From contig JACKID010000001.1 in the NCBI GenBank assembly GCA_020638675.1, positions 1,518,225-1,582,224 on the forward strand: a DNA stretch of 64,000 nt, read 5' to 3'. Position 1 is the first letter of the stretch; the number at the start of each line of letters is the position of its first letter. This DNA comes from Planctomycetota bacterium (GTDB lineage Bacteria > Planctomycetota > UBA8742 > UBA2392). Shown one piece after another: positions 55,801 to 61,800 of this stretch. The position numbers were made by a program.

Positions 55801-58800
55801 GTAGTCCACCAGCACGGCTGTGCCCCAGGCGATGCGTCCGCCCTTGGCGTCATGCAGTGCGAAGTGCACGCGCTGGTTGGTCGGCTCGCGACGGAATTCG
55901 CGGCGGCAGGCGATCTTGGGGTTGTTGTTCCGGGAGACGATCTCGTCGCGGACGCGGGTGTCCTTGATGCGGTCGAGCAGAATCCGGTGGCTCGTCGTTT
56001 TCGACGCCATGGCTCACCTCACGGTGATCGGGTGTGTGCTGGGGAGGCCGCGGCCGGGCCCCGCAGGGCCCGGCTCGCAGATGAATGCTAGGCGATGGTC
56101 TTGATTGCCTGCTGCTTGGCATCCATGAAGCTGGTCTTCTTGCGGTCATTGCCCTTGCGCCCGCGGAAGCCGGAGACGCGATCGTACTCCTCAAGGAAGA
56201 TCTCGAGGGTGCTGACGATGTTGTCGATGTCCATGCGCGTCATGGCGATGGTGTCGCTCTCGGCCAGCTCGAGCTCGTTCGCAAGGTAGCCGCGCAGAAT
56301 GCGAATCGGCTGCAGCTTGCGGAAAATGAATTCGTCGAGGCTGACTCCCTTGCTGTCCTTGTCCATCTCTGGTTCCTTGCCCTTGGGGCGGCTGGTGTCG
56401 GCTTTCGCCTATGGCGTTTTATTCATGCGGCCTGCAGACCCCTGCGCGGCCATACTTGAACTTCTGGTTGCAGCTCGATTCCGTGCGCTTCAAACACTCT
56501 TTGCGTTACCTGGCGCATCAGCTCGATCACTTCGGCGGCCCGCGCTTCACCCGTGTTGATGATGAAGTTGCCGTGCCGGTCACTGACTTGTGCACCGCCG
56601 ACACGCAGGCCTTTGCATCCGGCGAGGTCGATAATCTTCCCCGCACTCTGTCCCATCGGATTCTTGAAGGCGCACCCTGCACTGAATTCTGAATAAGGTT
56701 GCGCGGCGAGCTTCTGCTGCAATATGTCACGGGCGTGCGCGATCAGCGCCTTGCGGTCGCCGACGGTGCCTTGCAGCACTGCTTCGATGACGACGCCGTG
56801 CCGCAACTCGCTGATGCGGTAGGCGAACTTGATCTCTTCGCGGTACAGGCTCTGCAGCTCGCCTTCCGGGTTGATCCAGATTACGCGCTCGACGTAGTCG
56901 GCGATCTCGCCGTAGCGCCCGCCGGCGTTCATCGCCAGCGCCCCGCCAACCGTGCCGGGGATGCCCGCCAGCGTCTGCGGCCCCGCCAGTCCCTCGGCGC
57001 TGCAGCGGTTGACCAGCGTGCTCAGGTTCGCGCCCGCCTGGACCTGCACCTTGCTGCCGAACACGTTGATGCTCTTCATGCCGTGCAGGCACAGCACGAC
57101 GCCCTTCACGCCCTCGTCCGCGATCAGCAGGTTGCTGCCGCCGCCCAGTACGTGCAGCGGCAAACCAAGTTCGCGCGCTGCGTGCACCGTGTCGGCCACG
57201 TCGCGCAAGGACGTCGCCTCAACGTAGTATTCGGCCGGGCCGCCGACGCGCAGCGTGGTGTGGGGGCTCAGCGGCTCGTTGCAGCGCAGCCGCTCGTGCA
57301 GGCGCTTGGGGAATGCGGCGATGCTCATGCCGCCACCTCGGCCGGTTTGATGGCGCGCAGGCGCCGGCTGATGACCTCGCGCTGGCGCAGCAGCTCGAAG
57401 GCGATCTCGTTGACGTCGCCCGCGCCGATGAACACCGCCACGTCGGCGGGCGTAAGCTTGGCGCTGAGGTCGTTCACGATCGAGCCGAAGTCGCCGTACG
57501 CCATCGCGTCGACGTCGTTCTGGCGCAGCCAGCGCGCGAGGCGTTCTTCCGGCTCGCCTGGCTGCACGCCGGTTTCGCGGGCGGCGTAGGTGCGGGCGAT
57601 CAGCACGCGATCGGCCAGCTTCAGGCAATCGGCGAACTGGTCGAAGAAGGTCAGGATCCGCTGGTACTGATGGGCCTGGAACACGGCGACCACGCGGCGA
57701 TTGACGAACGTCGCCCGGGCCGTTTCCAGCAATTGCTTCACGGCCGTGGGGTGGTGGGCGTAGTCATCGACCAGCGGCACGCCGCCGACGCTGCCGACCA
57801 CTTCAAAGCGGCGCTTTACGCCGCCGAAATTCTGCAGTGCCTTGAGCGCCGTGAAGACCGGGACACCGGCCCAGTTCGCGGCCGCCAGCGCGCCGAGCGC
57901 GTTCATGGCGTTGACCCGCCCGGGCACCTCCAGCTTCATGCGCCCGACCTGCATGCCGCGGCAGGTGATGTCCGCGACCGCGAAGCCGGAAGACGCATCC
58001 ACGTTGTGCAGGCGCCACATGGCCGCGGCGGATTCGCCGAAGCCGATGGCGTTGCAGCCGGCCTTGCGGGCGACTTCGCAGCAGCGTTCGTCGTCGGCGT
58101 TGTAGAACAGCGTACCGCGCGCCGGCAGCTTGCGTGCGAATTCGATGAAGCCCTGGGTCACGCCGTCGAGGTCGCCGTAGACGTCGATGTGGTCCAGCTC
58201 AATGTTGTTGAGGACGATCACCGACGGGTGCAGGCGCAGGAAGCTGCGGTCATATTCGCAGCTCTCGATCACGAAGTTCACGCCCGAGCCTGCGGCGCTG
58301 GCCGTGGGCAGGCTGGCGGGCTCGCCGCCGACCAGGTAGCCGGGGTCCTTGCCGCCGCCAACCATCATCTGCGCCAGCATGGCGGTCGTGGTGGTCTTGC
58401 CGTGCGTGCCCGCGACACAGAGGTTTGTGTGGGCGCGCGTGAATTCACCAAGCGCCTCGGCGTACTTCATCACGCGTATGCCGCGGCGTTGTGCCTCGCG
58501 GTACTCGGCGTTGGACTTCTTGATCGCGGCCGACGCGACAACGAGCTGGCAGTCGCCCGGCACGTGGTCGCGGTGATGGCCAACGTAAGTGGTTGCCCCT
58601 TCAGCGGCGAGGCTGCGAAGCATGGGGTTGTCGACAAGGTCTGAGCCCGTGACGCGCGCGCCGGCCTGCAGCGCAATGCGCGCCAGCCCGCTTACGCCCG
58701 CCCCGCCCATTCCTACGAAGTGGACGTGCCTGAGCTGTGAGAGTTTCATAATGCGCCCTTCGGGCAAGTGGCCCGTGGTCGGTGGCCAGTGGTCAGCAAC

Positions 58801-61800
58801 TACTCGCCTGTCCGCCTGCGTTTTCCACGGCCTGCAGGCTCATCGATCTTTGCTTCGAGCTTGCGGGCCAACCCATTGATGATCCGGCCAACTTCATCCG
58901 CACGACTTGCCAGCTCCGCTGACTGCTCTTCCTCGAGGTAGTTGAGCCTGCGCGCGATCTTGATTTGCGTAAACGACTCCGTCAGAGAGCCGTAGGAAAT
59001 GCTGAGGTGATTCAGGAATTCCTTCGTTGAAAACCGCCCCTGGCCCTCGGCGATGTTGCTCGGCACGCTGACGGCCGATCGGCGCAACTGTGACGTGAGC
59101 CCGTACAGCTCCTCCCGGGGCCAGTTGCGGGTCGAATGGTAGACTTCGACCACGAAGTCCATGGCTTTCTGCCACGCGATCAGATCTTCAATACTCTTGA
59201 CCGACATGCGTACCCTCGCCGACAGCGGCTTCTGGCCACTGGCCACGGTCCACTGACCACTCGCGCGCAACGCGCGCTATGCGGCAGCGCGTTCTTCTAA
59301 ATCGGCAGCGGAGGGTGGTTCGCTGAGGCCAATTTCGGCCAGAATCCGGTCCAGAATCGTGCCGGATGCGTTCGGTGCAGACAGGGCCAGGGCGGCCTTG
59401 GAAGCCGCCGAGCGGGCCTGGTCGTTCAGCAGCAGAGTCTCCAGCAGGTCGCGGACGCGGGGTGCATCCAGTGTGGCTTCTGGGGCGACTACGCCGGCGC
59501 CGCTGCCGGCGACCCAAAGCGCGTTGGCGCGCTGGTGATCGTCGGCGGCGTGGGGGTAGGGGACCAGCAGCATCGGCACACCCAGCGCCAGCAACTCACT
59601 GATGGTGCCCGCGCCGGAGCGCGTAAGCGCCAGGTCGGTCGCGGCGAACCAGGTCGCCGTGTTGTGCGTAAACGTGGTGGCGCGGCAGTGAACGCCCACG
59701 GCGCGCCAGGCGCGCTCGGCGCGGTCGCGGTCGCCGCGGCCTGTGATGTGCAGAACCTGGAAGCGCTCGCGCATGTTGCGGAACGTCGGCGCGGCGCTGA
59801 TCATGGCGTCATTGAGTGCCTTGGCGCCCTGGCTGCCGCCGATGATCAGCAGCGTCGGCAGGCTGGAATTCAGCCCCAGCGCGCGTTTGGCGTCCGCCTT
59901 GTCCGGCGGGTTGCCGAATGCCTTCCGAAGCGGGTTGCCCACGACTTCCACTTTGCAGTCCAGGTTGCGCGTGAGCGGCATGTGCGCGTAGCAGACGCGC
60001 GCGAAACGCGCGATGGTGCGCGTGACCTTGCCGGGAACGGCGTTGGCTTCAAGCGAGAACACAGGCAGGCGCATCAGGCTCGCGGCCATCGCGCCGGGCA
60101 GTCCCGCGTAGCCGCCGACACAGACCAGTGCATCGGCCTCGAAACGCTTCAATGCCTTGCGTGCAGCCGGCACCGCCATGGCCGTGGTGATTACCGTGGT
60201 CGCCTTGCTGCGCAGCCCCGCGCGCGGGCGACTGACGGGCAACGTGGTGAAATCAAAGCCGGCGTGGCCGTACATGCTGCGCTCGAGGTCGTTGCCGCCG
60301 CACAGCAGGTGGACGCTTTCGCGCCCGAAGCGCTCAGACAGTTCTTCAGCGAGTGCGAGTGCGGGGGCGATGTGTCCGCCGGTGCCGCCGCCTGCGATTG
60401 CGATTCTGGGGTGCATGGTTCTCGTCCAGGATTGGCGCTGCGGGTGCAGGGACGGACAAGCCCTATGCCGCACCCGCAGCGCCTGACTTCAGAAGAGCGA
60501 CCCGGCCTTCGAACAAATCGCTACCGGGCTGCAACTTCCGGGAAAGGTAGATCAAGACGACGCGACTATGCGCCGCGCCCTGGCACTCAGCCGGGCGCTT
60601 TCGGGCAGACGCTCGCCCGCCATCTCCTGTTGCAGCAGCGCGAAGGCTTCCTTCTCGCTGACGCACCGGCGGGCGACCGACAACACCAGCCCCGCGCCGA
60701 CCAGGTAGAAGAAACAACTGCTGCCGCCGAAACTGATGAACGGCAGACCAATGCCCTTGGTGGGAACGCTGGCGGTAACCACGGCCACGTTGATGGCGGC
60801 CTGCAACCCGATCGCCGCTGTGATGCCGATTGCGAGCAGGCTGCCGAAGCGGTCCGGCGCTCGCGCCGCGACCTTGGTTCCGATGATCATCAGCGAGACA
60901 AACAGCACCAGCGTCAGCGCCGAGCCGATGAATCCAGTCTCTTCGGCAAGCACGGCGAAGATGAAGTCGGTCTCCTGCTCCGGCAGGTAGTACAGCTTCT
61001 GCATGCTGTTGCCGAGGCCCTGGCCTTCCATGCCGCCGCTTCCGATGGCGATCAGCGACTGCTTGACCTGGTGGCCTTTGCCGCGCGGATCTTTGGCAGG
61101 GTCCAGGAACGTCATGATGCGGTCCTGGATGTGATCGAACTTGGCGTACATCACGATGCTGGCAAACGGCAGCACGATCAGCGCGGCGATCGCGAGATGG
61201 CGCACTCGCAGCCCGCCCGCGAGCAGCACGACGAATGAGCTGGCCGCAAGGAACAGGCTGGTGCCGAAGTCGGGCTGTGCCATCGTCAGCACAACGTAAA
61301 TGCCGACGAACATGCAGCCCGGAAGGAAGCCGCGCCGGATCGAGCCGAGCTCGTTGCGCCGGACCGCGGCGTAGGTCGCGGCCGAGATCAGCAGCGCAAG
61401 CTTGGCAAAGTCGGACGGCTGGATGCCGACACCGCCGAAGCGCAGCCAGCGGCGCGCGCCGTTGAACTCCGTGCCGACGCCGGGGATGAGCGTGAGTACC
61501 AGCAGCGCGAGGCCAAGCAGGTAGATCGGCTTGGCGAACTTCTGCCACAGGCGATAGTCGAGGCGGGCCACGACGGCCATGCCCGCGATGCCCAGCCCGA
61601 CGAACATCAGGTGACGCTTGATGAAGACAAAGGGGTCGATCTCGGCGCCGGGCACGACGCGGATGGCGCTGCTGCTGAAGACCATCACGACGCCGACGCC
61701 AACCAGGGCCAGGATGTTCAGCAGGTACGCGTTGCGAAGGGTGCGTGACACGGTGAGATACCCCATCCGCCGCGAACATCACGGCATGGTGTACTCTTCG

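Follow-up and report, generated by a model that had tools for sequence, protein, structure and literature searches.

Why does a small gene of the 23S ribosomal RNA (rRNA) intervening sequence (IVS) protein family lie between murG and murC, two genes of the dcw cluster that normally adjoin each other? The question is raised by a stretch of 64,000 nucleotides (nt) from a Planctomycetota bacterium (contig JACKID010000001.1, positions 1,518,225 to 1,582,224), hereafter called the window, in which an earlier note had described this gene and, on both of its sides, tandem heptamers in opposite orientation. We propose, with moderate confidence, that the gene and its flanking arrays form a promoterless, IVS-type cassette that is enclosed by a stem, resides in an operon spacer, is dispensable and is probably processed by RNase III. 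What is new here is an IVS-type cassette outside rRNA, the architecture of which is family-wide and spans phyla.

The small gene and its flanking arrays

The spacer between murG and murC is occupied by a small open reading frame (ORF), and the whole gene neighbourhood is on the minus strand (Table 1). The earlier claim of an IVS-family gene at this position holds: the ORF product matches Pfam PF05635 (23S_rRNA_IVP; E=4e-40, 136.6 bits with a cut-off of 33.8) and NCBIfam TIGR02436 ("four helix bundle protein"; E=2e-38, 130.8 bits with a cut-off of 24). In a phmmer search, residues 7-111 of the protein match chain A of PDB 2GSC, the solved structure of XCC0516 from Xanthomonas (E=2.8e-23). Judged by these matches, the protein is clearly a member of the S23p, or 23S rRNA IVS protein, family and is assigned a four-helix-bundle fold. 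It shares this fold family and a distant homology with the Avd protein of diversity-generating retroelements (DGRs), a protein that binds nucleic acids and reverse transcriptase, as seen in matches to Pfam bAvd (E=3e-8) and to the PHROG family "Avd protein of DGR" (E=2.5e-10). Membership of the DGR Avd group was nevertheless rejected, since the NF033474 score of 30.7 bits is below the NCBIfam equivalog cut-off of 80 and no reverse transcriptase is found beside the cassette, its neighbours being murG and murC (template and variable repeats were not searched separately). The ORF is under purifying selection: against its orthologues (see below), the proportion of nonsynonymous differences (pN) is 0.17-0.24 and that of synonymous differences (pS) is 0.67-0.80. 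The corresponding pS of murG is 0.45-0.54, a comparison that bears on vertical descent versus independent insertion but is confounded by the differing GC content at third codon positions (GC3).

Four tandem heptamers stand on each side of the ORF, and the two arrays are in opposite orientation. The left array reads AAGTGGC CCGTGGT CGGTGGC CAGTGGT on the plus strand (58766-58793), exactly as had been described. For the right array, the inverted orientation is real, but to the three units previously listed a fourth, GAGTGGT, has to be added (units 59262-59235). Tandem Repeats Finder (TRF) assigns a period of 7 and 4.3 copies to the array on either side; the distance from the end of the 5' array to the ATG of the ORF is 24 nt, or 27 nt when the CAG that follows the last heptamer is not counted. 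The entire unit measures about 500 nt, and its heptamers have a C-A-G-T/G core, which takes the form (C)AGTGGN here. The array pair constitutes the longest inverted repeat of the window (50 nt with 76% complementarity, 435 nt apart). A regular expression for at least two in-phase NNGTGGN units matched at four places in the 64 kb, and the sole runs of four units were the two arrays of the cassette. The single heptamer CNGTGGY, by comparison, is not enriched in the window (101 matches against 96 +/- 10 expected), therefore the signal resides in the tandem and inverted arrangement and not in the motif. Specificity of the heptamers for the cassette, on which the earlier note had made its interpretation depend, thus stands as far as four-unit runs are concerned, but arrays as such are not exclusive to it, ORF-less hairpins being found at 12962-13050 and 14346-14420 (see the last section).

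The duplex energy of the two arms is -72 kcal/mol, as opposed to -43 +/- 5 kcal/mol with shuffled partners, and a stem of about 30 bp that pairs both arms is present in the minimum-free-energy as well as in the centroid fold predicted for the cassette. Similar folds are predicted for four independent cassettes (the window copy and those of loci L003, L006 and L010), with a long-range stem of 25-32 bp, the whole ORF in the loop and z-scores of -2.9 to -4.5. A GC palindrome located just outside the right array was also pointed out earlier. It is real, and in the predicted fold its 3' half lengthens the base of the long stem; however, it is missing from the orthologous cassettes of L003 and L006 and was rejected as a conserved boundary element. 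The small hairpin that contains the Shine-Dalgarno sequence of murC has an equivalent in L003 (GTCCC-GGA-GGGAC).

Table 1. Positions of the cassette, its parts and the neighbouring genes, and of the second cassette, in the 64,000-nt window
Feature	Position	Strand	Description
ftsW	60552-61766	minus	
murG	59277-60473; stop TAG 59277-59279	minus	upstream neighbour of the cassette, co-directional; Pfam Glyco_transf_28 and Glyco_tran_28_C
GC palindrome	59263-59277	minus	gcgcgcaacgcgcgc / GCGCGCGTTGCGCGC; after the murG stop codon, overlapping it by 1 nt
5' arm	59232-59262 (units 59262-59235)	minus	four tandem heptamers, GAGTGGT CAGTGGA CCGTGGC CAGTGGC, plus CAG
Shine-Dalgarno-like GAGGG	59213-59217	minus	5 nt before the ATG of the ORF, inside the loop; read from the sequence
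S23p / 23S rRNA IVS protein family ORF	58800-59207; ATG 59207-59205	minus	135 aa; stop codon included in the coordinates
3' arm	58766-58796	minus	coding strand CTG ACCACTG GCCACCG ACCACGG GCCACTT; begins 3 nt after the ORF stop
Small hairpin	58755-58765	minus	GCCC-GAA-GGGC, including the Shine-Dalgarno sequence of murC; located between 3' arm and murC start codon
murC	57325-58749; ATG at 58749	minus	downstream neighbour of the cassette, co-directional, followed by murB; Pfam Mur_ligase, Mur_ligase_M and Mur_ligase_C
GxxExxY cassette	17365-17821	plus	ORF 17400-17786 (TIGR04256/PF13366, PD-(D/E)XK fold) between inverted octamer arrays AACCGCCAAGACGCCGAGCCGCCAAG and CTTGGCGACTTGGCGTCTTGGCGGTT

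The same build around homologues and at the murG-murC junction

Comparison of the window cassette to 80 metagenomic loci that encode homologues of its protein (43-63% identity) showed that most of them are built alike, with tandem arrays just upstream of the ORF and a reverse-complement array just downstream. In 828 kb of fetched loci, TRF detected 110 inverted pairs of arrays of the same unit, 99 of which have a period of 7, and the spacing of such pairs peaks at 360-490 nt, that is, at the size of the ORF. Arm complementarity was also scored independently of ORF calls, with arms paired across loci serving as the control. Within a locus it exceeded the 95th percentile of the control in 51 of the 65 homologue loci (about 3 expected), while direct-repeat scores within a locus did not exceed the control. 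The unit sequences vary from locus to locus (CAGTGGT, CAGTACC, CAGTATG, CAGTTGC, TAGGGAC, CAGGGGT, GGCAAGA and others) and units match across loci at only 8%; the complementarity of the arms is hence conserved far better than their sequence. The C-A-G-T/G core recurs at a strict 7-nt period and with a fixed polarity, the CAGT-type arm being 5' (AGT 76 versus ACT 8 in the upstream arms). A typical cassette has 4.4 units per side, a 5' array that ends 27 nt before the ATG and a 3' array that starts about 10 nt after the stop codon; around the homologue ORFs the stem is typically about 27-30 bp long, corresponding to some four tandem units per side. The window copy is archetypal in this geometry.

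The contexts of these cassettes are diverse. L010, with a 63% identical homologue, carries the same CAGTGG-type arrays after an unrelated gene. No rRNA was found at the Rfam gathering score in the 80 homologue loci or in the window, nor was any other Rfam family matched at that score, except for an unrelated Acido-Lenti-1 in L168. The same build is present in cultured organisms, on a plasmid of Calothrix brevissima (GGGTGTA/TACACCC arrays) and on plasmid pANA02 of Anabaena sp. 90 (L186; NC_019429.1 43880-45033), where a four-helix-bundle gene with AGGTGAC/GTCACCT arms is located between cas6 and cas4 of a CRISPR-cas operon. Plasmids gamma and alpha of Nostoc sp. PCC 7120 (L183 and L184) encode an identical four-helix-bundle protein (WP_010994075.1). 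In these copies only a 3' array of CTCTGCC heptamers is kept and the upstream sequences are unrelated, one of the two following an ISL3 transposase gene. At least three spacers of the L150 contig (168-1458) share the unit GCGTAAA/TTTACGC, among them those on either side of an rfbA-like host gene; a genome can therefore contain arrays of a single unit at scattered positions.

A gene of another family, GxxExxY, is enclosed in a comparable manner elsewhere in the window (Table 1). Six further GxxExxY loci were inspected: inverted arrays with units of 8-9 nt are seen in all five for which both flanks are available, and in L080, the sixth, which is cut by the contig end, only the upstream array is present. 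In four of the six (L174, L177, L179 and L181, from Planctomycetota, NC10 and other metagenomes) the ends are nearly identical to those of the window copy, GAACCGCCAAGACGCCAAG ... CTTGGCGTCTTGGCGGTTC, and the other two have CACAGAGG-type units. Ends that are so nearly identical across sources have the look of a recognition sequence that has been conserved. The copies in L174 and L176, which have the same SIS-protein and haem-binding-protein neighbours, are orthologues of that in the window. Scans of viral contigs for GxxExxY relatives, with a single protein and with an alignment, gave no confirmed relatives. Both cargo genes (58800-59207 and 17400-17783) are poorer in GC than their neighbours (58.5% and 58.9%, respectively, against 65-69%), and their GC3 is 74% as compared to 82-88% in the neighbouring genes. 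A role of either protein as a component of anti-phage defence was considered and rejected, no PADLOC family being matched by the IVS-type or the GxxExxY protein. The matched arms of the 51 homologue loci, together with the inverted 8-9-nt arrays of the GxxExxY loci, bear out the earlier proposal of a family of miniature cassettes, here with different small proteins as their cargo.

How long the cassette has been at the murG-murC junction can be judged from the relatives. In a database of 5.8 billion proteins, the two closest homologues (76% and 71% amino acid identity) are likewise encoded between murG and murC, in two other lineages, and both are flanked by the same heptamer type in differing copy numbers. 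The three junction copies are most closely related to one another, in a way that matches the MurG tree. When species-representative genomes were searched with MurG, eight close relatives were obtained; seven of them cover the junction of murG and murC, and the contig of the eighth, L017, stops shortly after murG. In the nearest genome, L016 (MurG 92% identical), the spacer between murG and murC is uninterrupted and 30 nt long, and the IVS gene is also missing at the junction in L015, L018, L019, L020 and L021. L014, the MurG of which is 93% identical to that of its cassette-bearing sister L003, has a 92-nt spacer (4122-4214) from which the ORF and the 3' arm are gone and in which the 5' array survives only with its first ~50 nt, homologous to the L003 array. 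Because nothing but these ~50 nt of the heptamer array is left, the L014 junction is a deletion scar of the cassette. In the MurG tree every cassette-bearing genome has a cassette-free sister. Among 80 loci fetched with MurG, the gap between murG and murC, where both genes were found, is mostly about 25-100 nt (in a few cases up to ~740 nt) and in none of them does it hold an IVS gene; the two genes are normally contiguous.

Close relatives have, at one and the same junction, the whole cassette, no cassette or a scar of one arm. The cassette is dispensable and acts as a unit. The pattern fits an old insertion followed by repeated loss, one such loss being visible as the scar; repeated transfer among relatives is the alternative. 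Orthologues with the same heptamer type occupy the same junction in two lineages, therefore repeated loss explains the polymorphism at least as well as recent insertion does. The comparison with the dcw clusters of relatives, which the earlier note had put forward as a check, thus has two sides: L016 is uninterrupted, but the two lineages that share the gene and its heptamer type show that the window copy is old. The earlier interpretation is supported with two qualifications: the insertion is old, and the polymorphism is as much a matter of loss as of gain. A single housekeeping junction with filled, empty and scarred alleles offers a tractable case for the study of gain and loss, processing and mobility. 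In L017, a different four-helix-bundle cassette (2208-2689; 48% identical; CAGAGGT/GACCTCT units) was observed in the spacer directly upstream of murG, and the dcw spacers of this planctomycete clade have therefore been colonised more than once.

Proposed processing at the RNA level and the alternatives

The closest known system is the ORF-bearing IVS of 23S rRNA, found in Coxiella burnetii, Leptospira and others. The C. burnetii IVS consists of an S23p ORF within a 28-bp stem of terminal inverted repeats, in which RNase III cleavage was mapped, and has three tandem GACAGAT heptamers upstream of the ORF, the copy number of which varies between strains (PMC4990558). Similarly to the 23S rRNA IVS, the window element has an S23p/PF05635 ORF in the loop of a ~28-bp inverted-repeat stem and tandem heptamers of variable copy number in the region of the 5' arm, is promoterless and falls into the size range of ~430-500 nt. 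The two differ in their residence, which is the spacer of an mRNA operon for the window element and helix 25 or 45 of 23S rRNA for the classical IVS. They also differ in the state of the ORF: that of the window has a good Shine-Dalgarno sequence in the loop and is under purifying selection, whereas the Coxiella ORF is decaying and its Shine-Dalgarno sequence is lost on cleavage. Since the anatomy of the Coxiella 23S IVS is identical, we regard the window element as an IVS-type element in an mRNA operon.

Sites resembling a promoter or a terminator were not found when the cassette was scanned, and the gene upstream has the same direction as the cassette gene in 60 of 69 loci, which suggests that the cassette relies on read-through transcription. 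No Rfam family was found in the cassette (58600-59400) at E<=1. We propose that the cassette would be transcribed within the dcw message, that its arms would pair in the transcript as in the predicted folds, and that RNase III would cut the resulting stem in analogy with the 23S rRNA IVS of Coxiella and Leptospira. Such a cut would free the ORF as a short monocistronic RNA and would part the murG message from that of murC; in rRNA, the same cut results in a fragmented 23S. For annotation, it would follow that an essential operon of cell-wall synthesis contains a likely site of RNase III processing.

Several points weigh against this proposal. For the window element we infer the co-transcription, the RNase III cleavage (by analogy with the rRNA systems) and any effect of the cassette on murC. 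The arms are equally good as a DNA inverted repeat and as an RNA stem. Arm mismatches of the G.U type do not significantly exceed those of the A.C type (59 versus 50, p=0.44, in the larger set; 40 versus 26, p=0.11, in an earlier set), therefore selection at the RNA level cannot be claimed. A sequence-specific recognition, which would be needless for a plain RNase III stem, is suggested by the CAG[T/G] core that recurs with each unit and by the ends of the GxxExxY cassettes, nearly identical across phyla (GAACCGCCAAG...CTTGGCGGTTC). With regard to mobility, the close kinship of the three junction copies fits a long vertical residence with losses. Neither a near-identical second copy nor a target-site duplication was seen, thus recent mobility of the window copy is unsupported: tblastn detected no second copy of the cassette gene within the 64-kb window, the sole part of the genome searched, and there is no direct repeat outside the arms (...GCGCGC|GAGTGG ... 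CCACTTG|CCCGAA).

The most serious rival is a mobile element that acts at the DNA level. In such an element the arrays would be terminal inverted repeats made of reiterated binding sites, or hairpins formed in single-stranded or cruciform DNA, the ORF would be the cargo and the RNA stem a by-product; the arrays would be read by a trans-acting transposase or recombinase or, in the GxxExxY cassettes, by the encoded PD-(D/E)XK nuclease. The conserved core with its fixed polarity, the ends shared by GxxExxY cassettes of different phyla and the lack of G.U over A.C asymmetry in the arms are all consistent with it, and so are the presence/absence polymorphism, the occurrence of the same unit in unrelated contexts, the GC3 of the cargo genes below that of their neighbours and the assignment of the PF13366 cargo to a nuclease superfamily (PMC3424549). 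However, no transposase is located in or beside the cassette, target-site duplications were found neither at the IVS nor at the GxxExxY copy of the window, and no near-identical copies were seen in the data examined. The units of PF05635 cassettes, moreover, differ at 3-4 of 7 positions between loci, unlike ends that are read by one transposase, and the Coxiella IVS, which has the same architecture and has been studied experimentally, is processed at the RNA level. We therefore consider a purely DNA-level element rather unlikely, as we do the reading of its arrays by such enzymes; it is partly complementary to RNA processing, since spread of the cassette needs some step at the DNA level. Known elements of this kind resemble the cassette only in part. 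REP (repetitive extragenic palindromic) and BIME (bacterial interspersed mosaic element) palindromes and MITEs (miniature inverted-repeat transposable elements) likewise place short inverted repeats in operon spacers and are present or absent between strains, and ORF-less versions exist in the window as well (12962-13050); in the cassette, by contrast, the arms are tandem arrays of 7-8-nt units that enclose a conserved protein cargo, and no link to a transposase or to the REP-associated RAYT family, no target-site duplication and no high-copy family of identical members was seen. Integron cassettes are, similarly to the window element, promoterless single-ORF units that are co-oriented with host transcription and delimited by imperfect inverted repeats. 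They have, however, one 3' attC and are arrayed next to an integrase, while cassettes of the window type have two arms and are single insertions in housekeeping operons with no integrase nearby.

A resident regulatory module of the dcw cluster is less probable still. The ORF would then be an old, vertically inherited accessory gene of a planctomycete clade and the arrays would serve local control unrelated to mobility; we give equally little weight to its specific form, in which they occlude the ribosome-binding site or start codon of murC or stabilise the mRNA in the manner of REP-type stem-loops. The 71-76% identity of the same-junction orthologues and their congruence with the MurG tree agree with this explanation, as does the purifying selection on the ORF; the predicted stem can reach the stop codon of murG and the start codon of murC, the small conserved hairpin contains the Shine-Dalgarno sequence of murC, and ORF-less heptamer hairpins exist in other operon spacers. 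But homologues in dozens of unrelated contexts and in many phyla are surrounded in the same way, therefore the architecture belongs to the cassette rather than to dcw, and five close relatives, one with 92% MurG identity, have no cassette and a normal short spacer. That the arrays are heptamer microsatellites arisen by replication slippage and placed around the gene by coincidence, with no functional unit at all, we regard as extremely improbable. Heptamer simple-sequence repeats are indeed over-represented in bacterial intergenic DNA (PMC4692102), and the copy number of the arrays differs between orthologues and strains. The only four-unit arrays in 64 kb, however, share one unit, are inverted and flank a single ORF, 24 nt ahead of its start codon and 3 nt past its stop codon, and the inverted array pairs and the matched arms of 51 of 65 loci, together with direct-repeat scores that do not surpass the control, effectively refute it. 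A G-quadruplex function of the arrays was rejected too, many units (CAGTACC, CAGTATG, CAGTTGC) having no runs of G.

Intergenic heptamers, hairpins without cargo and a possible wider class

The questions of where the intervening sequences of bacterial rRNA come from and how they move have stood since about 1990. Among the 80 homologue loci there is none in rRNA, and matched arms are present in about 78% of the scored loci; the IVS can therefore be reframed as a general cassette of transcribed spacers. Taken further, and only tentatively, S23p and GxxExxY genes might be what is carried by a very large class of cassettes that lack a promoter, are enclosed by a stem and occupy the transcribed spacers of many phyla. 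It is conceivable, though on balance doubtful, that operon spacers, cas operons and rRNA helices have been colonised alike, in which case the IVS of 23S rRNA would be the rRNA-resident minority of the class. As to how such cassettes spread, we can offer the speculative possibility that the excised, stem-closed RNA is copied to DNA with the help of an Avd-like protein and a host reverse transcriptase, or else that hairpin-specific DNA enzymes are involved. For practical purposes, a cassette can be delimited as an ORF of PF05635 or TIGR04256 that is flanked on either side by inverted arrays of 7-8-mers.

Heptamer arrays without a recognised cargo are known from intergenic DNA, and the STRR heptanucleotides of cyanobacteria were reportedly described by Mazel et al. 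1990. Intergenic arrays were also found in Xanthomonas, with the unit GGGAATC (PMC4692102), and in Beggiatoaceae and cyanobacteria, with the unit TAACTGA (PMC4679880). The cassette fits the way such repeats have been described in Xanthomonas, Nostoc and Beggiatoaceae. They share with it a 7-nt period, about four units, a position near the upstream gene and a frequent arrangement in convergent (inverted) pairs, and TAACTGA contains the CAGT core of the cassette on its opposite strand. The arrays of the cassette differ from them in being two stem arms around a specific cargo gene, with a unit that varies by cassette, and the two studies treat the arrays as G-quadruplex or regulatory repeats, with no connection to IVS-type genes (PMC4692102, PMC4679880). 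In X. campestris ATCC 33913, a four-unit GGGAATC-type array lies between bccP (XCC0517) and XCC0516 and overlaps the annotated start of the latter (PMC4692102 supplement). XCC0516, which directly follows bccP, is the crystallised S23p protein (PDB 2GSC) that the window protein matches. With the same reserve as for the class as a whole, the STRR, GGGAATC and TAACTGA microsatellites could be cassette arms or their scars; cassettes would thus be a concrete origin for the surplus of heptamers in intergenic DNA of Xanthomonas, cyanobacteria and Beggiatoa. A full-text literature search, incomplete in its coverage and leaving room for an earlier description, returned no paper in which S23p or GxxExxY genes that stand alone are connected with inverted arrays at their flanks or with stem-enclosed cassettes; the closest were PMC4990558, PMC4692102 and PMC4679880.

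Arrays without an ORF were also observed in the window. At 63021-63051 there is a lone 8-mer array, AGTACAAG, of 3.9 copies, with no inverted partner within ~600 nt downstream. The array at 14346-14420 is of the GTGGCCA type, as in the IVS cassette (TGGCCGC TGGCCAC TGGCCAG, then CAGTGAG CAGTG ... ACTGACCACTG); it is situated in a divergent intergenic region by a cinA-like gene and its predicted hairpin is the weaker one (z=-1.9 on the minus strand). Inverted arrays of GAGTTCN heptamers form an ORF-less hairpin at 12962-13050, in the spacer between two minus-strand genes (-42.9 kcal/mol, z=-5.9), which looks like a cassette stem without its cargo. Hairpins of inverted heptamers without an ORF, with gaps of 12-90 nt, are likewise present in spacers of seven of the loci fetched with MurG (L026, L030, L034, L037, L048, L068 and L081). 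Their hosts are metagenome-assembled genomes of Planctomycetota, Verrucomicrobiota and Desulfobia (L068), and L048 has three such hairpins, with the unit GAGTTGA.

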